Shown here: positions 42,909 through 61,758 of the stretch, one piece after another
How positions within the stretch are numbered: position 1 is the stretch's first letter
Layout: every line of letters starts with the position of its first letter
IMG/VR virus record: IMGVR_UViG_3300017987_000005
Location: 105,157 to 169,156 of that record
DNA length: 64,000 nt
DNA from: a virus
Direction: 5' to 3' (one strand)
Translations under genes and position numbers: made by a program
The notes under the pieces: model-generated
What the model was told of the DNA's origin: nothing
Databases searched by the model: none
The model's input: only the letters and a program-made list of their open reading frames with translations

Positions 42909-43096
42909 TAGTCTACGCTCCTCTCATTATCGAACCACTTCTTTTTCGGTTCTTCGGCTCTATGAAAATCACCGTGATAATCTATGCACGGCTTCGTCTT
43001 CCTGCACGACTCGCACAGCCCAACTGATACGTTCGGCATTATAAACCAGAACGTATCTACTCCGTTCTCAATGCAACACTTCTCGCAGATAAACAT
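42908..43096 (-). CDS. Zn-finger microprotein (WFDN motif)
   Basis: CxxC...CxxC; coupled to both neighbours. Confidence 0.7.
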   Translation of the reverse strand: MFICEKCCIENGVDTFWFIMPNVSVGLCESCRKTKPCIDYHGDFHRAEEPKKKWFDNERSVD

Positions 43097-43401
43097 TAAT
43101 AATCTTCATCAATAATATCATTAGGGTCAAGAGGATTTTCAGTCGGGTCGTAATCATCCGGATTCAGCTCATCATCCTCATCATCCATATGACTACGGTC
43201 ATCGAGCATCTGAATCGCTGCTACGGCTGAGCCGCGTATCGATTCGAAAAAATCCCGAAGCTCATCCTCATCAGTAATCGCATGATACGACTTTGCCATG
43301 ATTTCCTCAAAATCATCAAAAAGCTTATCGTAATTTTCACTGCTTTCTCCAGCAGTCCGGTCCTCACTCATCACCATTCTCCCGCACATACTTAAATCCA
43401 C
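43096..43401 (-). CDS. Acidic hypothetical protein
   Basis: Asp/Glu-rich ORF; start uncertain. Confidence 0.65.
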   Translation of the reverse strand: MDLSMCGRMVMSEDRTAGESSENYDKLFDDFEEIMAKSYHAITDEDELRDFFESIRGSAVAAIQMLDDRSHMDDEDDELNPDDYDPTENPLDPNDIIDEDY

Positions 43402-43642
43402 GAGTGGGAGGCTTAGTCGGAGCTTTATAATCTACTTTCTTTAACGGCTCCATTACAATACGTCCAGGCTCGATGCTTATAACTTCCCCTTCAGCATGTA
43501 CTCTCCCTTTATACGCAAACATAACTTTATCATACTCAAATAACTGGCGGGGCGTTCCCGACACGTCCCACCAACACTCATAAATATCAGAAGCCGTCTT
43601 ATGTTCCACTACCTCCGGCTTGGCATGAATAATGATATCCAT
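43364..43642 (-). CDS. Hypothetical protein (PUA/ASCH-like pattern)
   Basis: Start moved to ATG 43642 (MDIIIHAK); ends PTRGFKY. Confidence 0.6.
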   Translation of the reverse strand: MDIIIHAKPEVVEHKTASDIYECWWDVSGTPRQLFEYDKVMFAYKGRVHAEGEVISIEPGRIVMEPLKKVDYKAPTKPPTRGFKYVRENGDE

Positions 43643-43643
43643 A

Positions 43644-44039
43644 CTACATTCCTTTTCCGTCGTTAAACCATTCCCCGTTAGCTTCCACTTTGTTCCCGCT
43701 CTTCTGGCGCTCCGCCCAACGTACTCCGGCATCAAACGCTTCTTCCGGAGTAGGTCTTCCGTCAGATGCACGCCCTAGCATCGGATGCTGGCACATAAAT
43801 AATTTCTCCACACGAAGACGTACTTCATGGCCATAATATCCCGCTACGTATCCAAGATTTTTCCGCTCTATGCTCTCAGCTTCTACTCTGGATTTTCCAG
43901 CTATTCGCATAGTATGTTCGACAAGCACTTCGAAATACTCGTCAGCAGTAGCTTGGTCCATTATCGACATAGCAGGTTTATACTTCTCTCCGAGAGTAGT
44001 CTCATCAGGAAGTCTCTCGGGCAGTACTACTTTCTCCAT
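43644..44039 (-). CDS. Hypothetical protein (WFND motif)
   Basis: TAATG-coupled to nadE. Confidence 0.7.
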   Translation of the reverse strand: MEKVVLPERLPDETTLGEKYKPAMSIMDQATADEYFEVLVEHTMRIAGKSRVEAESIERKNLGYVAGYYGHEVRLRVEKLFMCQHPMLGRASDGRPTPEEAFDAGVRWAERQKSGNKVEANGEWFNDGKGM

Positions 44040-44776
44040 TACTCGTCCACCCTTCCTAAAAGTTTCTCATCAACAAAACAACACGGAGGCATCTGACGCT
44101 TATGTTGGCTCTGCAACATGCGCTTCGATAATGTCCCATCCTGGCAATCAATTCCTGCTAGCGCCCTATCCATCTGAGTATACGTCATTCCGATTTCCTT
44201 CTCATCCGTCTGCCCTTCCCATAATCCGGCTGAAGGTGCTTTTGTGAGGATTCGCTCGGGAACTCCGAGATGCTCAGCAAACTTTCGAACATGAGTCTTA
44301 TATAGACTTCCAATAGGTTCGATGTCAACTCCCCCATCCCCATATTTCGTATAATACCCGAGTTCTATCTCAGTCAGATTGCTCGTCCCGGCTACAAGAT
44401 AATTGCAAGTGTTTGCAACGTAATACAGGGCACACATACGAAGACGCGATTTCAGATTTGCTCTGGCAAGCTTACAATCAAACGTTTCCGGGAACAGCTT
44501 GAGCATACTATTATACGTATCTCCGAGTTCCACTACTTCGGAATAGATGGCAAACGTACTGCACAGCGTAGCTGCGTCAATCCCATCATCATCCAAAGAC
44601 TCGCACGGCATTATCAGCCCGGTCACATTTTCGTCAAACTCGCGCTTACATAGGACGGCAGTAACAGCAGAGTCTATTCCACCACTCACTCCGACTACGA
44701 CTCCCCGTGCTCCTGCTTTTGTTACTCGCTCCCTCATCCATCGCTGAATGGTATCGGCTACTTTCTCACATTGCAT
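44039..44776 (-). CDS. nadE: NH3-dependent NAD+ synthetase
   Basis: VGVSGGIDSAV, NLKSRLRM, GYYTKYGDGG, KAPSAGLWEGQTDE, SQHKR; no glutaminase domain. Confidence 0.97.
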   Translation of the reverse strand: MQCEKVADTIQRWMRERVTKAGARGVVVGVSGGIDSAVTAVLCKREFDENVTGLIMPCESLDDDGIDAATLCSTFAIYSEVVELGDTYNSMLKLFPETFDCKLARANLKSRLRMCALYYVANTCNYLVAGTSNLTEIELGYYTKYGDGGVDIEPIGSLYKTHVRKFAEHLGVPERILTKAPSAGLWEGQTDEKEIGMTYTQMDRALAGIDCQDGTLSKRMLQSQHKRQMPPCCFVDEKLLGRVDE

Positions 44777-45354
44777 TACTCTTCTCCTTTGGTGACTGCT
44801 TCCAGCTCTGCGATTACGGCTCCTTTTTCTTCCATCTCCTGAAGAGCTTCGTCAGAACTCTTTTCATCCACTCCGGCAATAGCATCGCGAACTACAGTGA
44901 CTTCGATTCCACGTTCCAGGAGTCCGAGTACAGCAGATTTCACGCAGTAATCGGTCGCTACTCCGTAAACAACGGCTGAAGAGACTTTCTTATCCTTAAG
45001 ATATTTGACAATCTCATCGTTGCCGCCCTTCTCAGCAAACACGTCGTACGTATTCTTGCGGAATATATCTGCGTCGTTATTCTTAGTTTCCTGAATAGAC
45101 TTCGCTCCCGCTGTTCCGCACATGCAATGCTCAGGAAACGGTCCGCCATTGACCTCAAGCTCACCCTCAACGTCTTTATACGCAGGAGTTCCAAAATGAA
45201 CGTCCATTGTCTTCACAACCTTAATGCCTTTCTCGACAGCATAATCATTCAGTCGCTTAAGAGCTGGTTTTATAGATTCGGCATTCGGAACATATAGTGC
45301 TCCTCCCTCATTCATAAAATCTCTCTGAGTATCCACGTCTACAAAAATCAACAT
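44776..45354 (-). CDS. pncA: Nicotinamidase
   Basis: DTQRDF..GGALYV, DVH, FPEHC..GT.GA, FRK, GVATDYCV (Asp-Lys-Cys triad). Confidence 0.93.
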   Translation of the reverse strand: MLIFVDVDTQRDFMNEGGALYVPNAESIKPALKRLNDYAVEKGIKVVKTMDVHFGTPAYKDVEGELEVNGGPFPEHCMCGTAGAKSIQETKNNDADIFRKNTYDVFAEKGGNDEIVKYLKDKKVSSAVVYGVATDYCVKSAVLGLLERGIEVTVVRDAIAGVDEKSSDEALQEMEEKGAVIAELEAVTKGEE

Positions 45355-45692
45355 GGTAATTCTCCTTCAAAACAAGTGCGATACATCAAGCACCGTAACT
45401 TACATTTTTCAATATGGTCTATCAATATACTCTGCACAATACAAGGCAGCATGTTTGCTTTATTTTCGAGGTCAATCTGATGCTCCTTATAATACTCATA
45501 AGCAAGTATTATAATAACTGCGTCAGTGCAACCGGTGGGACGCACATGGTCTTTAAGTTCTTCCATGTGCGCCTCCACCCAGTCAAGATATCCTTTGAAG
45601 AATCCCGGCTCGGTTTTAATGCGAATATTCTGTTTGCTCCAAACAATATATTCTTCCAGTTCAGGTCTATTCCGAGGTCCAGGTCCTTCCAT
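45348..45692 (-). CDS. Hypothetical protein
   Basis: Coupled ORF. Confidence 0.65.
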   Translation of the reverse strand: MEGPGPRNRPELEEYIVWSKQNIRIKTEPGFFKGYLDWVEAHMEELKDHVRPTGCTDAVIIILAYEYYKEHQIDLENKANMLPCIVQSILIDHIEKCKLRCLMYRTCFEGELPC

Positions 45693-48594: not shown

Positions 48595-49126
48595 TGTCCT
48601 CCTTTCCAGACTCCGCAGCTACCATCGCTTTCAGAACTTGAACATACGGAACGTTTTCAATATCCGCATCTGTAATCATGCGGTCAACGTCGTCATCGTC
48701 CTTCAGTTCAGCCCACCAGCTCTCGCATCCGAAAATGACGGTGCTGAGTTCAAAAACATAAAAAGCACAATTATTGTATGTCCTGACGTGCAGAACTCCG
48801 GTAGCTTTCTCACGCTCATATACGACATCAATCGGAATCTCTCCGATATACATCCCAAGGAACGTCTGCTCCTTATACTGTTCTGCACACGGTCTGATTC
48901 GGACAAGCGCCCCTACTTCAATTCCAGTCATAACCCCCTTCTTGGGGCGTGAAAAGTGTCCCTTAACATCACTGATTTCAACAGGAAACTTGATATCATC
49001 CATAGTATCAAACTTCTGTTTATGCTCAGCAATACCGTTGCTCAACTTCCCGATAAGTCCAGCCAACGCTTCTCCATCATTCTTAGCTTCAGACTTCTCT
49101 TCACTCGGTGCATTTGACTTTGCCAT
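48569..49126 (-). CDS. Hypothetical protein
   Basis: SD GGAGAGTGA before ATG 49126. Confidence 0.75.
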   Translation of the reverse strand: MAKSNAPSEEKSEAKNDGEALAGLIGKLSNGIAEHKQKFDTMDDIKFPVEISDVKGHFSRPKKGVMTGIEVGALVRIRPCAEQYKEQTFLGMYIGEIPIDVVYEREKATGVLHVRTYNNCAFYVFELSTVIFGCESWWAELKDDDDVDRMITDADIENVPYVQVLKAMVAAESGKEDNDASNEDS

Positions 49127-49544
49127 ACGTGTCACTCTCCTTCTGATTATCGAACCAGCGGGGCTTCCGCTTCAAAATAACGATATACGGCATCCCTCCG
49201 GGAAACAACGTCCACATATCTCGGGACGTACAATATTTTACTCGGCTGACTCCGATTCCAAGCACCATGAGCTGCTCCATGTAAAGATGCTCTCCCCACT
49301 GTTCGTCATCTTTGTTCTGACACATGTTGAGGAAGGTCCATCCCCCGCCCTTACCCTCATGAAACTGTTCGGGTAACTGGTTGAGGAGTCCGTCAATATC
49401 ATTAAAATGACTCTTCAGTCGCTCCGGGTGTAATCCATAAGTATGAGCTATTCCGCGAACTATAACTGCTTTTGATGTGCTCTCCCCCTCATTGAACAAA
49501 CAATCCTTAAATACCGACTCTACATTAGCTATTGTAAGTTCCAT
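49101..49544 (-). CDS. Hypothetical protein (WFDN motif)
   Basis: GGGWTFLNMC...QWGEH; SD GGAGAGTGA; start moved to ATG 49544. Confidence 0.75.
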   Translation of the reverse strand: MELTIANVESVFKDCLFNEGESTSKAVIVRGIAHTYGLHPERLKSHFNDIDGLLNQLPEQFHEGKGGGWTFLNMCQNKDDEQWGEHLYMEQLMVLGIGVSRVKYCTSRDMWTLFPGGMPYIVILKRKPRWFDNQKESDTYGKVKCTE

Positions 49545-49546
49545 GC

Positions 49547-49783
49547 TCACTCTCCCATAATAATACATTCGTCCTGAGTGTCGGTCATAGGCATAATCCC
49601 GATACTGGTAATCGCTACTCCCTCATAACCATTCTGACGGCACAGCTCTTTTGCGAATCGCTTCAACGCAGCAACCATCTTCAGATTCTTCGCAGTCTCC
49701 GGCGTCAAAGTAGCTTCCAGTCCAAAGCTCCCGGACCAGTGCTCTCCTTTGGGCTTTTTCTTGAAAAATGTTAAAGAATCCAT
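49547..49783 (-). CDS. Hypothetical protein, first gene after a strong promoter
   Basis: SD AAGGAGAGTGA. Confidence 0.75.
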   Translation of the reverse strand: MDSLTFFKKKPKGEHWSGSFGLEATLTPETAKNLKMVAALKRFAKELCRQNGYEGVAITSIGIMPMTDTQDECIIMGE

Positions 49784-49859: not shown

Positions 49860-50153
49860 TTATTTCGTAGACACAACCTCAAGTTCATCTTTATACAGCT
49901 TTATAGCCTCGATGACAACTTCCTCCCAGTAATCATCAAATTCATGCGCAGTCCAGTCGTCGCACAGCCCGCTCTCGCGCATCATGTTGCGAACATGCAT
50001 CCCGTCACGAAAATGAACTGGGTGCGGTATCTTTCCTGGAATAACGCAGTTAAGTGTTCCGAATGTATCGAGTATCCCGACAAAATACATCAATCCTTGG
50101 ACACTCATATTCTCCATGATATATTTAACAAGTTCTTCAGATACTTTTCCCAT
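49860..50153 (-). CDS. Hypothetical protein
   Basis: Start moved to ATG 50153 (SD GGAGG). Confidence 0.65.
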   Translation of the reverse strand: MGKVSEELVKYIMENMSVQGLMYFVGILDTFGTLNCVIPGKIPHPVHFRDGMHVRNMMRESGLCDDWTAHEFDDYWEEVVIEAIKLYKDELEVVSTK

Positions 50154-50403
50154 CTTCAGCTTCCTCCGATTTGCTTTTGTTTTTAAGATTTTCAAATACT
50201 TTTTTAATGCACGACTGTAATATCTTATCCGGATAGCCGCACTCCATGCACCACGGAGCGCCCCAACGATGGAGCCCAAGCTTGCACCAGAAACTTCTGT
50301 TCCTCCACCTTAACGGCGCGCCTACCCACCCCTTTTCATTGTCCCAATATCCTTCAGCCACGTTTACTCCTCTCTTTTTTCCACTTCTCGCACTTTCGTC
50401 CAT
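50137..50403 (-). CDS. Hypothetical protein (CxxGxHxW)
   Basis: Overlapping small ORF; start uncertain. Confidence 0.55.
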   Translation of the reverse strand: MDESARSGKKRGVNVAEGYWDNEKGWVGAPLRWRNRSFWCKLGLHRWGAPWCMECGYPDKILQSCIKKVFENLKNKSKSEEAEDGKSI

Positions 50404-50587
50404 CGCAAGAGGAGTTACCGACTATCGTGGTCATCCCCACTTGGTTATGAACTACTCGAGCTTTACAGATATACAGGCAACACCCGTTCCATTCGCGGTC
50501 TTTGCAATCACGTGCAAATACTTGAAATGGGTGAGTACTCTTATCCACTCGGTCTTTATGTTTACTCATAGTGCTGACAATTACCAC
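50354..50587 (-). CDS. Cys-rich hypothetical protein
   Basis: Small ORF; start uncertain. Confidence 0.55.
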   Translation of the reverse strand: MVIVSTMSKHKDRVDKSTHPFQVFARDCKDREWNGCCLYICKARVVHNQVGMTTIVGNSSCDGRKCEKWKKERSKRG

Positions 50588-50843
50588 TAATATTCAAACG
50601 CATCGCAGTAATCTCCCTGTCTGCTGTCTGCGAGGTAGTACTACAGTCTATCTCCTGATTGAATTTCCAACATTCGACGTATCCCCAAAAGTTAACTTCG
50701 CCATGCTTACACTTCCGGCATTCTCTTGAAACTTCCGGAACTTTCCGGAATATTCCGTACAATGCTAGAACTATCCCAACAATGCATAACGGTAACATGA
50801 CGTACATTAAAAACCAATCGGGCGTTCCGGCTGGTATCTTCAT
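50562..50843 (-). CDS. Membrane-anchored Cys-rich protein
   Basis: N-terminal TM segment, CxxC. Confidence 0.65.
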   Translation of the reverse strand: MKIPAGTPDWFLMYVMLPLCIVGIVLALYGIFRKVPEVSRECRKCKHGEVNFWGYVECWKFNQEIDCSTTSQTADREITAMRLNISGNCQHYE

Positions 50844-51286
50844 TCCGAACTCCAGTATTTAAGCATGGCTATAAGCGCAGGGTACGTCGTTAAAAAATGA
50901 ATCAAGAAATCGACTACGACGTATACAACTGCGGTAAATGATATGTAAATGACGGCATCCCGCCTCGGAGGTACTTCTCGCTGCCCAACTGACATCGGCT
51001 CATACTGCTCATGCACTTTATCAATAGACTCGAATGAACGTCCCCCTATCAGGCGCAGCCAAACATTCCCGAGTCCGAAAATATCAACAATCCCATGCAT
51101 ACAAGCTACCGGTACGATAATCAAGACATTCTGGAACATAGCTCCCATCGTCAATCCGTAAATAACCGTATGGACAATAATCGGAAGCCCGAGCTTCCTA
51201 GTCTTATTCAGCGCCATCCAGTTATTCTGGAGAAGAAAATCTGCAATCAGATGCGCTATTACGAATTTTTCAAAAGTATTCATCAC
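50840..51286 (-). CDS. DUF3307-like membrane protein
   Basis: AHLIADFLLQ..WMA..K, H, H..VD, D..IH. Confidence 0.85.
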   Translation of the reverse strand: MMNTFEKFVIAHLIADFLLQNNWMALNKTRKLGLPIIVHTVIYGLTMGAMFQNVLIIVPVACMHGIVDIFGLGNVWLRLIGGRSFESIDKVHEQYEPMSVGQREVPPRRDAVIYISFTAVVYVVVDFLIHFLTTYPALIAMLKYWSSE

Positions 51287-51480
51287 GCCTCCCTAAATTT
51301 GCGAGATACTTCGCTCTCCTGTCCGCATCGTTTGCAGTACATGCGAGCATAATCCTTGAACCCCTTGATTCCGGAATTCAACTGCTCATCCGTTGCAGGG
51401 ATTCCTTCCTGCGCGGCGCACGTCCACGCATGGCTCCCCATAAGCTTACAGAAAAACAGGATTGCAAGTATTCTACGCAT
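51283..51480 (-). CDS. Small Zn-binding protein
   Basis: CKLMGSHAW...CKRCG. Confidence 0.65.
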   Translation of the reverse strand: MRRILAILFFCKLMGSHAWTCAAQEGIPATDEQLNSGIKGFKDYARMYCKRCGQESEVSRKFREA

Positions 51481-52655
51481 CAGTAACGGCTCCTATGAAA
51501 AGCATATCTAACTCCCTGCTCGTTTGTCGGCATCTTCGCTTCGAGTAAAAAGAATAGCCCTATATTCACAGCTATCCCGATAAATACAGCTAACAACTTC
51601 CACGCCCAGTGTATACTTATTTTGATATATTCGAAATCAGCGAACTCTTTACGCTCCCACTGTTCAGGAACAAATTCTCGTAAAGCTCGGGCATAATCAT
51701 TAATATTCCAAACCTCACCAACCAGCTCGTTCTCAATACTTTTATGTATAGTAGTATTATCCATCCAACTCTGGACGGAACACCACTGGACTCTGCTTTC
51801 CGTAACTCCGACGAACGTAACAAGCTCATTCTTATTCGGCCCCTGCCACGCTGACATTACATCATCAACAACACTCCTGTCCTGTCCATGAAATAACATC
51901 AGTATAGTATGTATCTGATATTTCGGTCCAAACTCAGCATTAATTCGTCGCAGCAAAAGCTCATCTTCCTGAGATGCTCCTCCGAGCACTGGTGACGTAT
52001 TCCCTTTATCAGCAGGGCGGGGATATTTCTTGATAAGCTCCTCCGTCGGCTCCTTAAACTTGAATATCGAATTAGATTCGCGTACTTTATTCTTATATGT
52101 ATGAATAGAAGAATTCGGAAACATGGTCTCAAAAGTTCCGGGCCACTTGCACTCAAATATCCCTCCGGTTATAGGAGTCTTAAGCATTGTTGCACTTCCT
52201 TTGTGCTCCCCAGTACGTTTCTCGTTTCCCCACAACGATTTCCATTTATTATACGTCCCCTGGTTACACGTGGACCAATTCCCATACTCATCTTTAATAC
52301 TCCAGTAAGGTCCGTAATACGCAGTAACATAGTAAGTCTCTGTCCGATAACGCGTATTTCCTTTGCTATCAGTTCCACACGGAACTTGTCGAGTGCGAGA
52401 TTCCTTCTTACTCCACTTCTCCTCATGCTTTATTCGAGTAACTTTATAATTCCATACTTCAGAATCGTATATCTTCATTATTCCGATGAAATATAAAGAT
52501 ATTCCAAGAATAACCCCTATCCCGATTCCTGAAGAAATCAGAATTAGAAACTTCTTCTTATTACGCTCCTCCTTCAAAGGCCATGTCGGAAGCACTAATA
52601 AAACAAAAGCTGTCAATAGAGGTACGAATATCCCTATTAAAATTAATCCGCTCAT
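51480..52655 (-). CDS. Membrane protein with a large extracytoplasmic domain (TPM-like C-terminal part)
   Basis: Two N-terminal and one C-terminal TM segments; WQGPNKNELV. Confidence 0.75.
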   Translation of the reverse strand: MSGLILIGIFVPLLTAFVLLVLPTWPLKEERNKKKFLILISSGIGIGVILGISLYFIGIMKIYDSEVWNYKVTRIKHEEKWSKKESRTRQVPCGTDSKGNTRYRTETYYVTAYYGPYWSIKDEYGNWSTCNQGTYNKWKSLWGNEKRTGEHKGSATMLKTPITGGIFECKWPGTFETMFPNSSIHTYKNKVRESNSIFKFKEPTEELIKKYPRPADKGNTSPVLGGASQEDELLLRRINAEFGPKYQIHTILMLFHGQDRSVVDDVMSAWQGPNKNELVTFVGVTESRVQWCSVQSWMDNTTIHKSIENELVGEVWNINDYARALREFVPEQWERKEFADFEYIKISIHWAWKLLAVFIGIAVNIGLFFLLEAKMPTNEQGVRYAFHRSRY

Positions 52656-52658
52656 TCT

Positions 52659-52964
52659 TCACTCTCCTTCGATATCTTCCTTGATGGCTAGTGCGAGCAG
52701 CATCAACGCCTTCCTCACTCTAAGATGATTCCCACCACCTACGCTGGTACGTGCTCTAAATGTTGGGACTCCCAATGTAGTATTGTGTGACGGAGACATA
52801 CTCAGATGCAAATCACCATCACTCGATATCAAAACACGCATAATCCCACATCGGTCATCACACTCTACTTCATATGATTCACTGGAGTTAAGTCTCTCCC
52901 ACAGCCGCCCCCACTCGATAGAAATCATATTATCGAATAATGATTTAGAGGAGGTCATCTTCAA
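52659..52964 (-). CDS. Hypothetical protein
   Basis: Small ORF. Confidence 0.6.
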   Translation of the reverse strand: MKMTSSKSLFDNMISIEWGRLWERLNSSESYEVECDDRCGIMRVLISSDGDLHLSMSPSHNTTLGVPTFRARTSVGGGNHLRVRKALMLLALAIKEDIEGE

Positions 52965-53493
52965 GCTCTTTAGTCTCGACGGCTTTCTTAGCTTTAGCTC
53001 CTGAAATCATCTCCGGCTTATCCTTGATTTTACCCTCATAACTCAACCACAGAATATTATGCCACGGGTCTTCACAAAAGGTGTTATACTGACGCCATAC
53101 GTCCGTAAGAGTATCCTGGCTTCGCTTGAACTGGTCGAGTTCTCCGGCAATAGAGTTAGCGAGCTTGGTATAAAGTTCCGGAGTTATTCCGAGCATATTA
53201 GCAGACTCGTTCTGCATCTTCAGAAGCGAACCTCCCTTACGCCCTTCGGCTTGAGCCATTACAACAGCAATAAAATCCTTCGCGAAATCATCCTTGACTT
53301 TTGCTTGGTTCTTAATGGTTTTAATCATATTATCGAGCGTGGTTTCGACTTCATTGAACTGCGCTTCATAGCGGTTCTTCAGCCCAACATAATCACGCTT
53401 AACCCCCATCCCATAAAACCAGAACGAAATGAAAAACAAGACAATAAGTCCCACAACAGACAGCGTAATAATGACTGATTTATTCATCGTCAC
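52945..53493 (-). CDS. LemA-like membrane-anchored helical protein
   Basis: N-terminal TM segment followed by a helical bundle ending YN...P.N. Confidence 0.65.
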   Translation of the reverse strand: MTMNKSVIITLSVVGLIVLFFISFWFYGMGVKRDYVGLKNRYEAQFNEVETTLDNMIKTIKNQAKVKDDFAKDFIAVVMAQAEGRKGGSLLKMQNESANMLGITPELYTKLANSIAGELDQFKRSQDTLTDVWRQYNTFCEDPWHNILWLSYEGKIKDKPEMISGAKAKKAVETKELEDDLL

Positions 53494-54016
53494 TCTCCTC
53501 CGAAAAAATTATGTCAAACTTATCCTTCAACTTAGGATATACACGATACAACTCACTCTTGTATTCATCAGAAATCTCCGTTAGATTCCCGTCAAGAATC
53601 TTCTGATAATCATCCAGCCACTTCTCCGGAACTTTGAATACGAACGTACAATACGTGCAGTCAAAGTCATCGTCAAAGCGCTCAACAAAACATTCATGAT
53701 TTTCCAGTTTATCTGCTTCGCATGCTGGGCAGTCGCAATCCGGCTCACCGTCCTCCCAACACTCGGAGTTTCCTCCGCCCATCCTGGTGAATACGCATAT
53801 AACGGGTTCCGGGTCAGATTTGAATTCGTTGTCAAACCATTTCGGGCTATCCTCATCTATGGACATTAACGGCAATCCGTCTTTATTAAGCTTGAACTTC
53901 CGCTTCTGAACAAAGCAGTCCCGGAATCGCGGATAATCATCCGCGTGCTTCCCGAGCATAGGAAGAATAAAAAATGCGGCAGGGTTTACTCCCTCTATCA
54001 TATTATAAAGACTCAT
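53480..54016 (-). CDS. Hypothetical protein (WFDN motif)
   Basis: MSLYNM...RFRDCF...TRMGGGN...DDDFDCTY. Confidence 0.75.
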   Translation of the reverse strand: MSLYNMIEGVNPAAFFILPMLGKHADDYPRFRDCFVQKRKFKLNKDGLPLMSIDEDSPKWFDNEFKSDPEPVICVFTRMGGGNSECWEDGEPDCDCPACEADKLENHECFVERFDDDFDCTYCTFVFKVPEKWLDDYQKILDGNLTEISDEYKSELYRVYPKLKDKFDIIFSEESDDE

Positions 54017-54879
54017 ATAAACTCACTTTCATCATCCATCTTCTTCAGCCAATTCTGGTAAGTAGTCTGTGTCCCGTTCCACTCAAACTTCTTAATACTA
54101 TGCTTCTGATACCAGTCCCACAGCTTATCAATTTGTCGGTTGCTGATTTTATGGCGCGACCCGTAATGTATCAGGACAATATGCTTCCCAGTCATATATC
54201 GTCCGACTTTAATCCATCCACGATTCAAAAGAACGTCAGGTCCGTTATCGTCAAATTCGTATCCGAACTTGTCGATAATCTGTCCGGCTGTTTCGGTGTG
54301 CTCCCAATATCCGCATGAATACCAACCTCCATGCGGAGACAGCCACCCTGACTCAAGCTCGATATCATCAGTCTGAATCTCAGGTTCTTCCTCTTCTTCC
54401 TCTTCCGGCTCAATAGTCTTAGCAGTAGCGGTTCCGGTCCAGAAATCGACTGTCCCCTTAATGAGACTCTTTGTAGTCTCCTTGGCATACTCGTACGCGT
54501 CCTCACGTGCTCCGCCGTTGTACAAACGGATAAGTTCTGCTCTATCCCTCTTCAAAGTCTCAATCTCGTCCTTGAGCGACGTGAAGGCTTCCTGGAGCGA
54601 TGGCATCTCTACGTCATCCTCTACGAGATATAACGGTTCCAGTCCTTTACACTGCTTACATTTCGGGTCTTCGCAGATGCCCCATCCCGACATCCGCAAC
54701 TTGCCGGCAAGAATAGCAATACACTGTCCATCATCCAGCCCTTCGAAACACTGGACCATGTTCAACGCTTTCGCGTAGTTCCCTTCCCGGACAATATCTC
54801 GGGCAAGGTCTGTGATAAAATCCCCACTTACGAGGAAATGAAGCGTTTCGCGCAGCTCCCTTTTAGTCGCCGTAGTCAT
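54013..54879 (-). CDS. Hypothetical protein
   Basis: 288-aa ORF; GWLSPHG...H...GWIKV. Confidence 0.75.
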   Translation of the reverse strand: MTTATKRELRETLHFLVSGDFITDLARDIVREGNYAKALNMVQCFEGLDDGQCIAILAGKLRMSGWGICEDPKCKQCKGLEPLYLVEDDVEMPSLQEAFTSLKDEIETLKRDRAELIRLYNGGAREDAYEYAKETTKSLIKGTVDFWTGTATAKTIEPEEEEEEEPEIQTDDIELESGWLSPHGGWYSCGYWEHTETAGQIIDKFGYEFDDNGPDVLLNRGWIKVGRYMTGKHIVLIHYGSRHKISNRQIDKLWDWYQKHSIKKFEWNGTQTTYQNWLKKMDDESEFI

Positions 54880-54894
54880 TACTTTCTCCTCAAT

Positions 54895-55188
54895 TTACTC
54901 AGCATCCGCCTCGCTGTTGCAATCACTTTCAACGTCGGCTTTCGCAGAAACGGAATCTCCGTCATCCCCTTCGGCACTTTTAACGCTATCAGCATCTCGT
55001 CCCTTCCGAACAGCATGGCATCCCTCCTCAATAACAAATCCGAGCTGTTCCAGCGTCCGGTACATGTTCTTGAAAAATCTCCGCGCGCAAGGTCCACAAA
55101 TGCATTTATTTCCCCCGAACTTCGTCACATCGGACTCAAATCGAGGCTTTGAACATAACGAACAAATTCTATCTGGCTTAGCTCCCAT
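54895..55188 (-). CDS. C4 Zn-finger protein resembling the ClpX N-terminal domain
   Basis: CSLCSK...ICGPC; start moved to ATG 55188. Confidence 0.55.
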   Translation of the reverse strand: MGAKPDRICSLCSKPRFESDVTKFGGNKCICGPCARRFFKNMYRTLEQLGFVIEEGCHAVRKGRDADSVKSAEGDDGDSVSAKADVESDCNSEADAE

Positions 55189-55189
55189 A

Positions 55190-55528
55190 TTACATGTTCT
55201 CCTGTATCTCTTCATCAGTCCATTCGAATAAACGGGTTCCGTCATCAAGCTCCAGGCATAAAAACGCCATCGGTCCACTGGACCACGGGTCAGCTTGAAC
55301 AACTTCCTTAACAGTTCCTCCGTTTTTCAAACGATACGTTATAAGGTCTGGCCCATCCCCGGCAAACATATCAACGTGTTCACTCGAAAGCTCGACCTGT
55401 ACTTTAGTAGTATCTTCATGTCCGCACTTAGAACATCTGTGCGTAACAATATCCTTAACGGCAACGTGCTCCTCGAGCCATCCCGCTGCTCCGTCCTTTA
55501 ATCCAACATATTGGAAACAACGCATCAC
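55190..55528 (-). CDS. Hypothetical protein
   Basis: SD AAGGAGG; CSKCG. Confidence 0.7.
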   Translation of the reverse strand: MMRCFQYVGLKDGAAGWLEEHVAVKDIVTHRCSKCGHEDTTKVQVELSSEHVDMFAGDGPDLITYRLKNGGTVKEVVQADPWSSGPMAFLCLELDDGTRLFEWTDEEIQENM

Positions 55529-55728
55529 TTATCCTCCTTTTGCAAGTGATTGCAATCAGCTCCGACAGGCTTATCCCCCGGAGCGAGTAGTACAATCTTC
55601 CCGCAACGCTTACATCTCCACTTATTCCTCGCCATGATAAATCCTACATCATCATCTTTACATTTTTCCCACTCATCGTGCAGACAAAATATCCGCGCAA
55701 ATAACCGAGATAATAATCTCTTAATCAT
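55525..55728 (-). CDS. Small Zn-binding protein
   Basis: FCLH...CKRCG. Confidence 0.65.
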   Translation of the reverse strand: MIKRLLSRLFARIFCLHDEWEKCKDDDVGFIMARNKWRCKRCGKIVLLAPGDKPVGADCNHLQKEDK

Positions 55729-56609
55729 CGGTGCCGAGTCAGCACTTCTTCGATATCACGAATAAGCATGGACTTGTTATTTACGTCCTTACTGATAAGC
55801 TCATCCAGGTTTCCAAAGTGCTCCTCTAAACAACGATGGAGCAAATCAATAATAGCATCATGGTCAGGACGCTCCCGAAGCGGAGAAGACTCATACAAAC
55901 CTTCCAGATACTTCTCCTTACGCTTGAACAAGTCTTCAATCTCATCCAGAGTCATGTCTCCACGATGAACAGCTTTAATCTGCTCCCGAGCGCGAGTCAG
56001 GTCAACATCTCCATCCTTAAGAATCTGCTCGCATTCATCAAGCAGACGGATGATATGTCCGGCAAACTTTACATCGAATCCGAACTTCTCAACAATAGCT
56101 TTGCGCTTCCCCTGACGGTTCTGCGATTTCGCTTTATTCAACTGGCTCCAAGCGTATCCTTTGAACTTGAAGAATGCTCCCTTATGAAGAAACATCTTAC
56201 GATTCACGCGAACCATCTCCCCGATACGCGTGGACTTCAGAACATACTCCTGTTTCGTAAACAGGCTGTCAACCATGTTCGGATTGTTCTCCGCAAGCAG
56301 TTTGAAGTATTTTACAATATTAAACAACTGGATATCGACATCGAGTCCGTCATACGACATTCCGTGCTTTTGAAGTTGGTCGAAATTCGGGAACTTCTTG
56401 TGGTATCCGTAAATGAATCCGTGATGAAACGGGAACACAATATCCTTCGGCGGAATCGTGAAACCGTACAGGTCATAATCCGATTTCTCGGTATACGTAT
56501 CATAAGCACGGCTCCCCATCATCGTGATATACTGGGCATTCTCCAGAATCCACGCTTGAACTGAGGGGTCGCTCTTAATCCCCTGATTTACGGTGTTCAT
56601 TACGCTCAT
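55725..56609 (-). CDS. Pol-beta superfamily nucleotidyltransferase (YcgL/RlaP-like)
   Basis: GSRAY...SDYDLYG, NPNMVDSLF, FKGYA, GFDVKFAGHIIRLL. Confidence 0.9.
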   Translation of the reverse strand: MSVMNTVNQGIKSDPSVQAWILENAQYITMMGSRAYDTYTEKSDYDLYGFTIPPKDIVFPFHHGFIYGYHKKFPNFDQLQKHGMSYDGLDVDIQLFNIVKYFKLLAENNPNMVDSLFTKQEYVLKSTRIGEMVRVNRKMFLHKGAFFKFKGYAWSQLNKAKSQNRQGKRKAIVEKFGFDVKFAGHIIRLLDECEQILKDGDVDLTRAREQIKAVHRGDMTLDEIEDLFKRKEKYLEGLYESSPLRERPDHDAIIDLLHRCLEEHFGNLDELISKDVNNKSMLIRDIEEVLTRHR

Positions 56610-56844
56610 TTATCTTCCGCTCAAAATAACTGTAAACACTATTGACTTCTTCCGTAGATGATAACATCGTACGCTTAAGCATATCGCTGTAATCCACTTT
56701 GAATTCGATGAAATTGATTATGCAGAACTCAATCATATGTCCGACTAAGTTCTGTTTGGCGTTCTCCCGGTTATGGTTCATCCAGTGGAATTCGTTAAAT
56801 CCTGTTTTATGCTGGAACCACTCCCAAAAATCTTTCATGCTCAC
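56575..56844 (-). CDS. Hypothetical protein
   Basis: SD GGAGAGTGA. Confidence 0.6.
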   Translation of the reverse strand: MSMKDFWEWFQHKTGFNEFHWMNHNRENAKQNLVGHMIEFCIINFIEFKVDYSDMLKRTMLSSTEEVNSVYSYFERKINERNEHRKSGD

Positions 56845-57130
56845 TCTCCTTGAAGTTATTAAACCATGCTCGCGGCTGTTTATTTTCCGGGACTTTATAC
56901 TCTCCAGTAAAATCCGGATAAAGAACAGTCAATCCGTCACGCTCCGCTTGCTCCGGAGTATACGGGTCATTAATCCCTATTACAATGCACGCTTCAAAAT
57001 CAATCCCATAAAGATATGCAAGTTTAGGCGCATTAATATAATGCTCATCGCCATCATTCTTACTAATGACTTTTCCGGGAACGAGGGCATATCGCTTAGG
57101 CTTCAGTGTCTTCATCCTCTTGCTCCTCAA
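56807..57130 (-). CDS. Hypothetical protein (WFNN motif)
   Basis: PG.VISKNDGDEHYI...LYG. Confidence 0.7.
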   Translation of the reverse strand: MRSKRMKTLKPKRYALVPGKVISKNDGDEHYINAPKLAYLYGIDFEACIVIGINDPYTPEQAERDGLTVLYPDFTGEYKVPENKQPRAWFNNFKESEHERFLGVVPA

Positions 57131-57467
57131 GCTCTCCCTTCAACCCTTCAGCTACAGCGTCCTCGATATCCTCTGACACAGCGTCTACAATATCCCCGAT
57201 TGTTTCCTCCGTAATAACGTGGCTATATCGTACTCGACGCGTCCTCGATTCATTGTTAGTAAGACATTGGTCACAGATAACGAGCTGGAGTGCGACTCCC
57301 TCCCCCTCAACAAGCGAATCAAAGAAACTCGAACCAAACGTCCCGTCAGCACTGAAGCGGAGTCCGTCGCCGGGACTCTTCCAGGGGTCTTCTCCCCGCA
57401 TCGCTGAGGAGAGTTCTTCTCCGCAACAAAAGCACGTAACTACTCGAGGGGGTCGTATAGTTGCCAA
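57096..57467 (-). CDS. Zn-binding hypothetical protein
   Basis: CFCCG...ICDQC. Confidence 0.7.
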   Translation of the reverse strand: MATIRPPRVVTCFCCGEELSSAMRGEDPWKSPGDGLRFSADGTFGSSFFDSLVEGEGVALQLVICDQCLTNNESRTRRVRYSHVITEETIGDIVDAVSEDIEDAVAEGLKGELEEQEDEDTEA

Positions 57468-57476
57468 ATCATTCTC

Positions 57477-57770
57477 CTATCTGTTTGTCTGAGGAATCGC
57501 AGTGACCGGCCCGCCGGTCTTATTCTTCGGCTTTTTGACTTCTTTCTTCACAATTTTCAACTGCGGTTCATCGAAGAACTTGTCATCATGCGTCGAGCCG
57601 TCGTCTTTCAGCTTTGTTGAACGCACTCCGTACGTGTTACAGTTATAAAGCCACTGAGTTCTGGCTACGACTATTCCGGTAAATCCGGCAATAGTATCTT
57701 CAACTTCATCGCCCAGGTTGAACTTAAACTTCGGCTCCTTCGGCTTCCTCTTTCTAATCGGCATCTGCAA
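57477..57770 (-). CDS. Hypothetical protein (SH3/KOW-like)
   Basis: FNLGDEVEDTIAGFTGIVVART. Confidence 0.7.
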   Translation of the reverse strand: MQMPIRKRKPKEPKFKFNLGDEVEDTIAGFTGIVVARTQWLYNCNTYGVRSTKLKDDGSTHDDKFFDEPQLKIVKKEVKKPKNKTGGPVTAIPQTNR

Positions 57771-57778
57771 TTCCTTTA

Positions 57779-58204
57779 CTAAGTTCCAGGTCTTTGCTTA
57801 ACATCGGGAAAATGCTCACTCAACAACTCGTCAGGTGTTTTCCCGTCCATTGGATATTTCTCTTTCAATTTCTTGCACATATCACAATTATCCGGGTGCG
57901 TACGGTATGGGTCTTTATTGCACCAGATATGATGACGATTCTTATATAAATCCTCCGACATCAATGCTCCTCCGAGACGAAGCGTCGTCGGGTCACACTG
58001 CTTCGCTGCAATCGCAATCTCGGCTCCGCGAATACGGTCAACAAACTCTCCGGTATTCGTTATAAATCCTTGATTCGAAGTCCCTTTTCCCTTGAACTTC
58101 CCGTCCGCTCCGTACTGAATAATTATCCGTGAATGGTTGCGACCGGTGTAGACTTTCCCGTCATTCCCGAGAATCGCTGCATCCTCTATTCTGAGGTCGG
58201 ACAC
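57779..58204 (-). CDS. Hypothetical protein
   Basis: QGFITNTGEFVDR...SEDLY. Confidence 0.75.
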   Translation of the reverse strand: MSDLRIEDAAILGNDGKVYTGRNHSRIIIQYGADGKFKGKGTSNQGFITNTGEFVDRIRGAEIAIAAKQCDPTTLRLGGALMSEDLYKNRHHIWCNKDPYRTHPDNCDMCKKLKEKYPMDGKTPDELLSEHFPDVKQRPGT

Positions 58205-58443
58205 GCCCCTACCTCCTCCCGCAGATAATACAGACGAGCATCCGGCTCATTATCCACAGACTTATCCTCGACAATGAGCATGATTTTGACATCGCTGGAA
58301 TCCGATATTTTCAGGTCTTCGTTTTCGCTGAAAAACAGATTGTTAGCTTGGATAATCCGAGTGACTTCTTCATCGGTCGGTATATGACTAAGCTCAGTCA
58401 CTATCCGCTCTTTCCACGAGTCGTATACAGCGTATCTTGACAT
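58186..58443 (-). CDS. Hypothetical protein
   Basis: SD GGAGAGTGA before ATG 58443. Confidence 0.65.
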   Translation of the reverse strand: MSRYAVYDSWKERIVTELSHIPTDEEVTRIIQANNLFFSENEDLKISDSSDVKIMLIVEDKSVDNEPDARLYYLREEVGACPTSE

Positions 58444-58459
58444 ATTCACTCTCCGCAAA

Positions 58460-58972
58460 TTAAATATTTGTGTATATTTTTCTATTAATTATTTCTGATA
58501 TATGACCTTTAGAGGTCTTAAAATCTTTAGCAATACTTTTCAAAGAATCTCCCCCGACCCTACGTTTACGTATTTCCTTTATTTGAGAATCAGAAAAGCG
58601 CCGTCTCACAGAAGCGGCTTTGAAAGCTGTCTTAATCCTGGCGTCAGAAGGTGCGTCCATCATATTCTCGCTATGCGTCCCAATTCCAATATTATCCCAA
58701 CTATTATCTAATTTATCACTATTAAAATGCCTTACTTCAATCTCGTCATCAAAAATACTATCTCCAAATTTCTGGTATGCTTGTAAACAATGGACCGATA
58801 ATCCACAAGTTTTTTTGCCAACCTTGACAGATATAGTATGATATCCTTTCGAATTCACTCCTCCGATAAGCTTCTTACCTAACGGGTTATGGGGAATTCC
58901 GTCTTTAGATACTCTATACCCATCCCTGTAAACACGCAAAAGTATCTTCGACATTTTACTATCTCTGCGCAT
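58460..58972 (-). CDS. Free-standing HNH homing endonuclease with C-terminal HTH
   Basis: VH...EVRHFNSDKLDNSWDNI..GTHSENM; AT-rich gene. Confidence 0.9.
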   Translation of the reverse strand: MRRDSKMSKILLRVYRDGYRVSKDGIPHNPLGKKLIGGVNSKGYHTISVKVGKKTCGLSVHCLQAYQKFGDSIFDDEIEVRHFNSDKLDNSWDNIGIGTHSENMMDAPSDARIKTAFKAASVRRRFSDSQIKEIRKRRVGGDSLKSIAKDFKTSKGHISEIINRKIYTNI

Positions 58973-58992
58973 ACCGCCCCTTAATTAAAAAC

Positions 58993-59080: not shown

Positions 59081-59086
59081 TCATAT

Positions 59087-59461
59087 TCAGTTATTCAGAA
59101 ACTTATTCCTCAACGCTAAGGCTTCCTCGTAATACTTCATCACTTTCTCAGTATCTTCTTTATTCAAAGTACGCATACTCATAAAGCAGGGGAATCCATT
59201 GACTGCTCCGGGTCCCGCTTTATCCATATACTCATAAATCATACATATATTCTGATGCTTCAACTGGTCAGCGGTCTTATCATCCATAAGAGCGAGAATC
59301 ATAAAAACATGTGGGAGCAAATCCTTATTCTCAACCTGACGGTCGCAGAATATCTTCCCTTCAACAATCCCGAGCGCTATCTCCTTAAGCACCGAATCCT
59401 CCTTCGGCACATAATCAAGCGGTTCTTCTTTGTCTGTTTTCTTATCGCTCTCGTCGGTCAT
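59087..59461 (-). CDS. Hypothetical protein
   Basis: YEYMDKAGP..VNGFP; start likely ATG 59461. Confidence 0.7.
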   Translation of the reverse strand: MTDESDKKTDKEEPLDYVPKEDSVLKEIALGIVEGKIFCDRQVENKDLLPHVFMILALMDDKTADQLKHQNICMIYEYMDKAGPGAVNGFPCFMSMRTLNKEDTEKVMKYYEEALALRNKFLNN

Positions 59462-59462
59462 A

Positions 59463-60593
59463 TCATTCCTTATCAGGAACATCCAGTTTGAATAATTCTC
59501 GACACACGTAAAACACTTTCTCAATAGCGTCGTCGCGCATCTTCGCCCACTTCTTTTTGAAACTCAGTTCACGAACTCCGATATACTTCTTATATTCGGG
59601 AGTAGGGTCTGCTTCCGGAATACGGAGCGATGCTTCCCCGAACCACCAGCTCCAGCTTACTGCTCCCTGCTTAACATGGTGGTCTTTTGAAAGCAAGTTC
59701 ATTACAATGCGTCCCGGAAACGTATGCATATCATACGCAAACCAGTCCACTTCATCAATGTGAAGCGGTTCGATAGCATCGATAAAACTATCATCCTTCA
59801 ATGCAGTATCTTCGTATCCGTCACGGAGCATCCTGAGTAATGCTACGAGTGTTAAATCAATATCGACTTTGCTGTTACTTAAAAGCTCGTCCATAACTGC
59901 ACGAGGAGCTTCCTGTTTCCCAATAGGTTCGTCAAACACGCGTCCGATAGCTTCGAGTCCATCTTCCTTCCTGGCGACTGCGAACATAGTCGAAATGACT
60001 TTCGACAAATCCCCGTCCTTCCAATGGTCTTTGAAAAACATCAGGTCAGTAATCTTCTCGTATTCCTTTGTATCTTTGACTTCGTTAAAAGCACGACAAC
60101 AATGTCCGTCCTTCTGCGACTTCGCAAGAGTATAAGTTACTCTTAGAGGATGCTCCTCAACATGTTGATACAGGTTCATACACGTATATACATCTTCAGG
60201 AATAATAACTTTCAAACGACGAATAAGTGATGCTGGCTGCATGTCGTGAAGCGCTTTCGCTGCGCGGACGGCTTTCTCAGCATATCCCCGGCGAATATAT
60301 TTCTGCATCGCACTCTTATATATCCCGACAGTCGCCATGTAGTCGAGATAATACTCCCCGACAATCTCCTCGCGGGAGATGCATTCACGGAGGAAGCGCA
60401 ACATCGATTTGCGGTTCTTCCCGTCCTTCTCAAGCTGAACGAGTTCTTTCATCTCCTTGACGGTGATTTTCTTCTTCTCGTCCTGCGCGCGCAGAGACTT
60501 CTGAATCTGCGGGATAGGCTTCTGCATCAAGTCGTCGTATACTGGCTTTCCCCTGTGCTTAGAGATAATATCATCCATTGATTCGAAAGGCAT
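59463..60593 (-). CDS. RarA/MgsA C-terminal-like protein lacking the AAA+ domain
   Basis: SAMQKYIRRG...A...RRLKVIIPEDV and AYDMHT..GR; no Walker A. Confidence 0.7.
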   Translation of the reverse strand: MPFESMDDIISKHRGKPVYDDLMQKPIPQIQKSLRAQDEKKKITVKEMKELVQLEKDGKNRKSMLRFLRECISREEIVGEYYLDYMATVGIYKSAMQKYIRRGYAEKAVRAAKALHDMQPASLIRRLKVIIPEDVYTCMNLYQHVEEHPLRVTYTLAKSQKDGHCCRAFNEVKDTKEYEKITDLMFFKDHWKDGDLSKVISTMFAVARKEDGLEAIGRVFDEPIGKQEAPRAVMDELLSNSKVDIDLTLVALLRMLRDGYEDTALKDDSFIDAIEPLHIDEVDWFAYDMHTFPGRIVMNLLSKDHHVKQGAVSWSWWFGEASLRIPEADPTPEYKKYIGVRELSFKKKWAKMRDDAIEKVFYVCRELFKLDVPDKE

Positions 60594-60648
60594 TTCACTC
60601 TCCTTTTAACGTACGCTTGTATTATATCATATATTTAGTATATGTCAA
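60594..60648 (-). promoter_or_regulatory. Strong sigma70-type promoter/RBS module, copy 2
   Basis: TTGACA-16 nt-TATAAT with extended TG, then ACAAGCGTA...AAGGAGAGTGAA. Confidence 0.85.
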
Positions 60649-60688
60649 GTATAAAATTGAAAAAATATGGCTTTTCGTAAGTGTAAAA

Positions 60689-60752
60689 TCCCCCGCCGGC
60701 CCGGAGAGTGAATAACGACCCGTTAAAGGGCCGAGGTAGGCCGTGCGGGGGA
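60689..60752 (-). terminator. Complex stem-loop/terminator with internal anti-SD sequence
   Basis: TCCCCCGC/GCGGGGGA closing stem followed by TTTT; inner CGGCC/GGCCG. Confidence 0.6.
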
Positions 60753-60756
60753 GTTA

Positions 60757-61326
60757 TTATATCCAACCTAAATTAGCAGCTCGCCATAGAACAAGGTCAA
60801 CAACTCCTATGCGCTCACCCAGCCGCTCTGCAAGTCCTTCGCATAATTCCGAAGGGGTCATTCCATAATTATCAGCAATCCGAACAATATGTCTGTCAGG
60901 CTTGAACACTTCTAGTCCGCAATTCTTCGCTAAATGGAACTTAGTAATTTTACCGAGTCCGTCTAATGTTTCAAAGTATTTTATTTTTTCTTCGTCCGTC
61001 TGAAGACTTTCGTATATATCGAATCGCTCATCACGCTCATCCCACGCTGATTGGATGGCGCGGGCTTTGTTTTTATTTTTGAACACATCCTTTACTGGAA
61101 CACCTTCCTTGATGGCATCGATAACTTTCTTGAATATCTGAACGGCTATTTGGTACTTCATTCCGGAATTGCATATTACAAAGATGGTCTCATACGCGAG
61201 AATGACTGAATTATGCGGAGCCTTCACTTCGTCGGCCCAGTCAATCTCATCCGCATATCCGGCGTCGATTATACGTTTTTTCAAATCAAGATATGTATCA
61301 GGACTCACAGAAAACATCATCCACAA
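60757..61326 (-). CDS. HhH-GPD DNA glycosylase-like protein
   Basis: LDGLGKITKFHLAKNCG...KPDRHIVR...VDLVLW. Confidence 0.75.
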   Translation of the reverse strand: MWMMFSVSPDTYLDLKKRIIDAGYADEIDWADEVKAPHNSVILAYETIFVICNSGMKYQIAVQIFKKVIDAIKEGVPVKDVFKNKNKARAIQSAWDERDERFDIYESLQTDEEKIKYFETLDGLGKITKFHLAKNCGLEVFKPDRHIVRIADNYGMTPSELCEGLAERLGERIGVVDLVLWRAANLGWI

Positions 61327-61531
61327 CAGTCAATTCAAAACTCGGTCCAGGAACAATATCCCCAAACCCATCATACGGAACAAGCAATCCGTCCTCCAGG
61401 CGATAATAACAAACAGCATCGAAATTAAATCCGTGGAACTCGGGCCACTCCCCTCCAAGAAAACGCTTTACTAATGCGGGACTGATTTTAGTAAGGTCTT
61501 GTTTATTGTTGAACCATTCGGTCATATTCAT
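61298..61531 (-). CDS. Hypothetical protein (N-terminal WFNN)
   Basis: ATGA-coupled ORF. Confidence 0.65.
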   Translation of the reverse strand: MNMTEWFNNKQDLTKISPALVKRFLGGEWPEFHGFNFDAVCYYRLEDGLLVPYDGFGDIVPGPSFELTVVDDVFCES

Positions 61532-61758
61532 ACTCTCGAATTATTGAACCAACCAGACAACTGTAGCATCCTTTGCTTCCTTTCCGTCAAACATACTTTT
61601 GATGAGCACTGCTGTTTATATTTATCACACATAATTATCTCTTCGTCACCCATAAGTCGCGGTGAACGTACTTTCGTATTATATGCTATTCCAGTAGCCC
61701 TGCATTCAAGATACTGCTCACGGAACGAACGCGGCTTACTTCTTATCTTCCGGACCAT
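61528..61758 (-). CDS. Cys-containing hypothetical protein (C-terminal WFNN)
   Basis: Coupled ORF. Confidence 0.65.
   Translation of the reverse strand: MVRKIRSKPRSFREQYLECRATGIAYNTKVRSPRLMGDEEIIMCDKYKQQCSSKVCLTERKQRMLQLSGWFNNSRV

Follow-up and report, generated by a model that had tools for sequence, protein, structure and literature searches.

The stretch of phage DNA considered here is a 64,000-nucleotide window, positions 105157-169156 of the complete 183,648-bp record of an uncultured phage with direct terminal repeats (IMG/VR record IMGVR_UViG_3300017987_000005), and the element in question is a peptide of four residues, W-F-[DN]-[DN], which recurs in a number of its small proteins. 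Positions refer to the window unless they are given as genome positions. The minus strand is the coding strand, carrying essentially all long open reading frames (ORFs) of the window.

Seven Tagged Proteins in the Window

An initial annotation, made from the letters of the window alone, had listed seven instances of the motif in seven unrelated accessory proteins and had proposed that they serve as a docking or targeting tag. When the window was searched with the degenerate DNA for W-F-[DN]-[DN], TGGTTYRAYRAY, exactly these seven were found. All are on the minus strand, and each is translated as W-F-[DN]-[DN] within the reading frame of a long ORF; in 100 dinucleotide shuffles of the window the pattern turned up 0.26 times on average and at most 3 times. 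The tags and the ORFs that carry them are as follows:

42926..42937, minus strand: WFDN, residues 54-57 of the 62-residue ORF 42908-43096, 5 residues from the stop
43659..43670, minus strand: WFND, residues 124-127 of the 131-residue ORF 43644-44039, 4 residues from the stop
49146..49157, minus strand: WFDN, in the 24-residue C-terminal tail of ORF 49101-49568, whose core belongs to phrog_26039
53828..53839, minus strand: WFDN, residues 60-63 of the 178-residue ORF 53480-54016, in a lineage-specific inserted loop of about 32 residues
56855..56866, minus strand: WFNN, residues 84-87 of the 102-residue ORF 56807-57115, 15 residues from the stop; core belongs to phrog_7644
61505..61516, minus strand: WFNN, N-terminal, residues 6-9 of the 77-residue ORF 61298-61531
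61540..61551, minus strand: WFNN, residues 70-73 of the 76-residue ORF 61528-61758, 3 residues from the stop

As had been claimed, six of the seven lie near a protein terminus: five sit 3-15 residues ahead of the stop and one is N-terminal, while the remaining one is internal. The carriers are indeed unrelated, with no BLASTP similarity among the seven, and the motif is missing from the structural proteins, there being no match to TGGTTYRAYRAY in the structural module at 1-40 kb of the window. The tag at 43659..43670 is the sole instance with Asp in the fourth position. The last two tags of the list are only 35 nt apart, the one at 61540..61551 lying upstream of the one at 61505..61516, and at the other end of the region a downstream gene begins at the very stop of ORF 42908-43096. 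The tagged ORF 49101-49568 encodes 155 residues, or 147 if translation starts at the ATG at 49544. No Pfam or PHROG family was found for ORF 42908-43096 or for ORF 43644-44039. Searched against 50,697 phage records, neither 22 kb of the sequence (megablast) nor the four window proteins from ORFs 42908-43096, 43644-44039, 61298-61531 and 61528-61758 (tblastn) returned a match.

The Tag across the Whole Genome

The seven proteins seen at the outset are real members of the group, though they make up only about one seventh of it. A scan of the whole genome turns up 39 exact matches, none of which is on the plus strand; the reversed control pattern matches once. Most of these tags (34 of 39) are no more than 15 codons from a stop; the other five are N-terminal or internal, one of them in a loop. 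Several DNA variants with one mismatch keep the C-terminal position, 3-18 residues from the end of the protein: WFEN (four cases), WFSN and WYDN. The working motif is therefore written W-[F/Y]-[N/D/E/S]-N, and it is found on about 45 ORFs of 42-183 residues, or about 13% of the ORFs of the phage. Asn holds the fourth position in 38 of the 39 tags. P-x-[A/G/K] is common ahead of the tag, and G-[R/K] after it.

The frequency of the motif is far above chance, as the initial annotation had estimated from a smaller sample. The called proteome, 55,387 residues in all, holds 35 matches, where 0.47 would be expected from its composition; 500 per-protein shuffles averaged 0.42 and reached 4 at most. 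Nearly half of all WF dipeptides in the proteome (39 of 90) continue as NN, DN, EN or ND. The density of the DNA pattern is 21 per 100 kb in this genome; in unrelated phage loci totalling 1.41 Mb it is 0.85 per 100 kb. When C-terminal tripeptides are counted, WFN and FNN stand out in this phage while nothing comparable is seen in a 172-kb control phage. The carriers remain unrelated at this scale, with only one BLASTP pair among them genome-wide. In a set of 41 tagged proteins none has a Pfam match and three have a PHROG match, two of these three being in the window. Literature searches, made with the motif strings and for C-terminal motifs common to phage early proteins, gave nothing relevant, and no account of such a label in phages came to light.

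Addition of the Tag to Existing Protein Families

Three of the window proteins belong to families that can be compared with and without the tag. The match of ORF 49101-49568 to the phrog_26039 profile covers residues 9-131, which leaves a tail of 24 residues with the tag on it. Both tail and tag are retained in the orthologues of 73% and 67% identity, but remoter homologues (six at 40-50% identity in one count, nine in another), as well as all 80 of the homologues in IMG/VR, stop soon after the core and have no tag. In ORF 56807-57115, the phrog_7644 profile match covers residues 8-75 and the tag follows at 84-87. A search gave 802 representatives; among the 150 of them that were listed, the match nearly always stops before residue 82, and only an orthologue at 65% identity retains A-W-F-N-N. 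It is also retained in an orthologue at 67% identity, and in both it is preceded by different residues. One homologue at 49% identity terminates in P-P-P-W-Y-D-N-G after an unrelated linker. The third case is the loop-tagged ORF 53480-54016, which has full-length homologues, all of them hypothetical proteins, in the spring-water siphovirus MW202545, Xanthomonas phage phiXF1 and Geobacillus virus E3. In these homologues two invariant blocks are joined by a connection of 4-7 residues, in place of which the protein described here has an insertion of about 32 residues that abounds in Pro and charged residues and holds the tag at its middle. The suggestion made earlier that homologues in other phages may lack the tag was borne out in all three families. 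The alignments indicate that three families whose members elsewhere do without the tag acquired it here, twice as a C-terminal tail and once as an inserted loop.

The predicted structures are in line with this arrangement. AlphaFold2 models built on deep alignments gave a predicted local distance difference test score (pLDDT) of 96-98 for the core of the phrog_26039 member and about 50 for its tagged tail; the corresponding values for the phrog_7644 member are 93-95 and about 55. As modelled, the tag sits on the flexible tails of well-folded cores. Neither core had a fold match when searched with Foldseek against the PDB. The motif has the usual attributes of a short linear motif, being short, disordered, convergent on unrelated proteins and more conserved than its flanks.

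One could imagine that such tails need no dedicated reader at all, and that the turn formed by the aromatic residues, Asn and Gly zips tagged proteins to one another or gathers them into a condensate. The string [D/E/N]-N-G-[K/R] is a well-known former of type I' beta-turns, as in hairpins of the trpzip type, and aromatic residues together with Asn or Gly are typical stickers of molecular assemblies. The Gly at position +4, however, is present in only 20 of the 39 tags and in one of the seven in the window, and AlphaFold2 shows no ordered structure for the tails, so that self-association of this kind appears highly improbable.

Selection on the Peptide

The initial annotation had placed the motif in the coding frame only and had read this as selection on the peptide. 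The larger set agrees with it on both counts. All 39 tags use one of the three possible reading frames; one of the unused frames would give TAA or TGA inside the motif, and this is never used as a stop. The codons AAT/AAC and GAT/GAC of the tags, and the Gly codons that follow, occur at about the frequencies of the genome. The nucleotide information is limited to the 12 bases of the motif, with a weak signal in the adjacent codons. Since only one frame is used, synonymous codons are genome-like, the flanks are not conserved and the tags of orthologues are kept through synonymous changes, we conclude that selection acts on the peptide and not on the DNA or RNA.

A nucleic-acid element has to be considered all the same, given how close many tags are to the next gene. 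In five of the seven window cases, the Shine-Dalgarno sequence and start codon of the next gene follow within 8-20 nt of the tag. A coding-strand element that is translated only incidentally, be it a protein-binding site or, ahead of the ribosome-binding site, a stand-by site or an enhancer, would account for this closeness, for the strict strand bias and for the over-use of TTT. It would not account for the 39 of 39 in a single frame, with the stop-supplying frame left unused, nor for variation that is only synonymous or conservative without any conservation of the flanking nucleotides; moreover, some tags are far from a downstream gene, and N-terminal and loop copies exist. The frame statistics largely refute this explanation, and we give it almost no credence.

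The other possibility at the level of translation is a nascent-peptide signal, in which W-F-x-N acts within the ribosomal exit tunnel to modulate termination, or re-initiation on a coupled downstream gene. The TnaC leader, which contains W-F-N-I-D, is the obvious precedent, being also a short ORF with a Trp-Phe-Asn string near its end. The 34 tags that lie 1-15 codons ahead of the stop would indeed be in the tunnel at termination, and about two thirds of the tagged genes abut or overlap the next gene. TnaC, however, needs a fixed spacing of Trp12, Asp16 and Pro24 ahead of the stop, whereas the spacing here varies from 1 to 15 codons and reaches 37 in one orthologue, which departs from the fixed spacing of TnaC and SecM alike. 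The five N-terminal or internal copies are far from any stop, and about one third of the tagged genes genome-wide are followed by a gap of 60-280 nt, by a promoter, or by no coupled gene. A TnaC-like mechanism is thus very unlikely. The frame statistics, together with the N-terminal and loop copies, are the heaviest evidence against both the translation-level and the nucleic-acid readings.

One of the non-C-terminal copies has a peculiar setting. The protein at genome 54843-55343, which bears the tag on an N-terminal arm, probably starts at Met16 behind a strong Shine-Dalgarno sequence; it has only a weak "RecE-like" PHROG match and uninformative Atlas neighbours. Overlapping it, at genome 55230-55480 (L011:2230-2480, minus strand), is an ORF of 67 codons that has a promoter and a ribosome-binding site to itself and whose TAA lies five bases ahead of the tag; the tag is read in the +1 frame, which is stop-free into gene 54843-55343. 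The arrangement represents either an N-terminal tagged arm translated from an overlapping start or a frameshift site.

The Tag in Related Phages

Close relatives of the phage were found only as short contigs, and two of these are informative. On the metagenome contig L105, which has 81% identity in a 391-residue marker protein, a 122-residue ORF without a homologue in the present phage carries G-W-F-N-N 15 residues from its end. The second contig, L174, was the one true relative recovered by a scan of IMG/VR DNA for two tags 320-350 nt apart, and has 70-79% identity to the genes at genome 12-22 kb. Its orthologue of gene 16918-17370 (genome positions) is only 32% identical and has a different linker, but still ends in G-W-F-N-N-G, with synonymous changes in the tag codons (TTC and AAT in place of TTT and AAC). 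In the neighbouring slot there is a 112-residue ORF with no homologue in the present phage, which ends in G-W-F-D-N-S-I.

The picture changes with distance. Relatives at 38-58% marker identity have neither the tag nor any other shared tail in 5-21 kb of syntenic sequence, with one possible WFEN tail as the exception. The tag thus appears to be confined to a narrow clade, and to be maintained there while its carriers turn over.

This turnover could also be read the other way, with the tag as a functionless scar of recombination: new genes would replace the body of a cassette and simply inherit its last codons. Non-homologous genes in the same slots of relatives do still end in the tag, and the tagged regions are hyperplastic, as is plain for the accessory region at 50000-58500 of the window when set against L105. 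The shared homology, however, amounts to four codons with synonymous scatter, too short to be a substrate of recombination, and the tag is also found at N-termini and in an internal insertion. It is, furthermore, invariant in the 32%-identity orthologue with the changed linker. An evolutionary by-product is accordingly most improbable.

Some further observations on these and other contigs may be recorded here. Contig L105 is without about 2 kb corresponding to 53510-55561 of the window, the loop-tagged gene included, and has instead a block with a UvsX-like recombinase that lies about 80 kb away in the phage genome. The other matches of the two-tag scan were not relatives; they were mostly AT-rich repeats of giant-virus bins, plus one paralogous family. 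The latter is found on two IMG/VR contigs of 35% GC (L198 and L176) as tandem paralogues of about 115-130 residues with identical last 16 residues, including K-W-F-D-N-L-I; given the paralogy, and as the contigs are not relatives of the phage, this was rejected as a case of the shared tag. A 172-kb genome (G001) was also rejected as a relative, sharing only five proteins and having no C-terminal motif. L295 and L296, two large IMG/VR phages with homologues of nicotinamide phosphoribosyltransferase (NAMPT), are not close relatives either: their NAMPT identities are 51% and 44%, and they have no tags.

Genomic Context and Timing

A search of the whole genome with a near-consensus sigma-70 promoter pattern, TTGAC[A/T/C]-N16-18-TAwwwT, gave 24 strong promoters on the coding strand and one on the other, which are found only at 16.5-77 kb and 152-178 kb of the genome. 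The tags have a closely similar distribution: all of them are at 16.5-68 kb or 148-167 kb, and none is in the intervening block of about 80 kb; those of the window form a third and sparser cluster. This block, from which strong sigma-70-like promoters are likewise missing, is devoted to replication and structure, with recombination genes, portal, sheath, tape measure, baseplate and an intein-bearing terminase. Because the tagged genes occur only in the regions of sigma-70-like promoters, we infer that the tagged proteins are early proteins. For the same reason a capsid-loading signal, one of the roles put forward in the initial annotation, is disfavoured.

In the terminase region there is a near match to the tag:

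37494..37505, minus strand: WFDE, residues 10-13 of the 183-residue ORF 36981-37532 (TerS-like)

The near match is there as had been noted, but as it has no Asn in position 4, it is a doubtful member of the group, and the identity of ORF 36981-37532 as TerS was not confirmed by PHROGs. The 943-residue protein that adjoins it, at 34184-37015 on the minus strand, has an intein with a LAGLIDADG homing endonuclease (Pfam Intein_splicing and LAGLIDADG_3) and is probably the intein-split large terminase. A NAMPT-like gene (phrog_448), at 40361-41539 on the minus strand, stands just ahead of the first tagged gene of the window.

Comparison with Known Peptide Labels

Short peptides that bring different proteins to one partner are well known. 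One of them is the sliding-clamp-binding motif, Q-L-[S/D]-L-F in bacteria, to which the C-terminal tails of T4 gp43, gp33 and gp55 that bind gp45 can be added. Clamp motifs are, like the tag, short peptides on the flexible termini of unrelated proteins; they are read by one hub, and the hydrophobic pocket of that hub takes two adjacent hydrophobic residues comparable to the W-F pair. The residues ahead of the 39 tags do not fit the clamp consensus: position -3 is P, K, S or T and position -2 is G, K, R or P, with no preference for Gln and no hydrophobic residue two positions ahead, and an Asn follows the aromatic pair. The carriers also differ, being about 45 small function-unassigned proteins and not enzymes of replication or transcription, and no clamp gene was identified in the phage.

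The C-terminal tip of SSB, D-D-D-[I/L]-P-F-COOH, and the acidic tails of T7 gp2.5 and gp4 are similarly aromatic docking peptides at the end of disordered tails. In the SSB system one carrier serves many readers, while here many carriers would presumably serve one. An acidic run ending in [I/L]-P-F is not seen in the tags, which are basic or neutral, flanked by K, R and P, and followed by 1-15 residues, so that there is no free carboxylate. Searches of the genome for families like gp32, SSB and gp2.5 gave nothing above threshold, and Pfam SSB was not found in six frames. These negatives lend no support to a tag copied from the N-terminal arm of an SSB of the phage, and the N-arm-tagged protein at genome 54843-55343 was not identified as one. 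Two contigs at 43-44% marker identity (L121 and L122) encode, upstream of the marker gene, proteins of 139-145 residues with an acidic tail ending in D-I-P-F, which by its sequence would be of the canonical SSB type.

Encapsulin cargo-loading peptides are short and C-terminal, are borne on a flexible linker, and can be transferred to cargo proteins that are not related to each other. The modelled tails here, with pLDDT of about 50-55 next to confident cores, have the same layout. The sequence is unrelated to the L-T-V-G-S-L type of consensus, however, and in place of an adjacent shell gene the tagged genes are spread over two regions of 30-60 kb. Encapsulins also have few types of cargo and an HK97-fold shell as the reader, and nothing here points to an enclosed compartment.

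The last comparison is with the capsid targeting sequence (CTS) of the T4 internal proteins, which has been reviewed (PMC3012670, PMC9026906). The CTS is also a portable peptide that sends unrelated phage proteins to one destination, but it is N-terminal, is cut by the prohead protease at an L/I-x-E site, and is found on late, packaged proteins. The tags are mostly C-terminal (34 of 39), in genes outside the structural block.

A Proposed Single Reader for Many Proteins

Taken together, we consider a portable docking tag read by a single partner protein to be the best explanation, with a probability of roughly 65%. W-F-[N/D/E/S]-N would be a portable short linear peptide tag of this phage clade, attached to some 45 small proteins with no relation to one another, mostly at the flexible C-terminus and less often at the N-terminus or in an inserted loop. 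Its exposed aromatic pair, Trp-Phe, and the Asn that hardly varies would dock into one pocket of a single reader, by which many different early effectors could be brought to one place or handed to one machine. The near-invariance of Trp, Phe and the Asn in position 4 suggests a specific pocket over a generic hydrophobic recognition.

We lean slightly toward a reader encoded by the phage rather than by the host, because relatives at about 50% marker identity have no tags in the syntenic region. One candidate is a pair of adjoining genes at genome 71775-75564 (L143:3775-7564, minus strand), which encode an 814-residue CobT-like protein, with a CobT N-domain and a C-terminal vWA domain, and a 393-residue MoxR AAA+ ATPase of the CobS/CbbQ type. 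A complex prediction of the 814-residue protein with the tagged phrog_26039 member gave a score of 0.00, which speaks neither for nor against binding. A bolder reading, which we regard as a long shot, makes the tag a label for the cargo or substrates of a dedicated phage-encoded machine such as this CobS/CobT-like pair, with clade-specific terminal tags on dozens of small early proteins as an undescribed principle by which large phages in general are organised.

The same gene pair gives some weight to a different use of the tag, as a degron or substrate tag for a protease or AAA+ unfoldase, be it the host Lon, ClpXP or the phage CobS/CobT-like pair, with timed removal or remodelling of the carriers as the outcome instead of localisation. 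The tag is exposed, aromatic, and placed at either terminus or in a loop, all of which is shared with Lon-type degrons; Gur and Sauer reportedly characterised such degrons in 2008, among them the beta-20 degron, which is said to contain A-W-F. The carriers, moreover, appear early, and a CbbQ-type AAA+ protein is encoded by the phage next to the CobT/vWA protein. Against this stand the near-invariant Asn (38 of 39), which argues for a specific pocket, and the fact that no phage protease was identified and that there is no experimental handle. On balance we regard a degron as unlikely, if somewhat less so than the other alternatives discussed above.

It should also be said what weighs against a docking tag with a single reader. 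Both the early timing and, above all, the binding to one reader are things that we infer. The Phe codons of the tags are skewed, with TTT 33 to TTC 6 compared to 58% TTT in the genome, and this excess is a mild nucleotide bias without an explanation. Part of the downstream consensus (G-[R/K] and K-E-S) probably reflects an overlap with Shine-Dalgarno sequences and not the tag.

Significance

The small early genes of large phages are for the most part without a known function, and they share nothing from which one could begin to work. A common label would offer a single experimental entry into them, since finding its reader would give dozens of orphan proteins a location or a pathway at once. 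Being only four to nine residues long and placed at either terminus or in a loop, the tag could in addition be used as a portable handle for protein targeting. Should the reader be a hub of the host, the tag would mark a set of effectors of host takeover or anti-defence; if it is a machine of the phage, the tag would reveal a new layer of organisation in infected cells.

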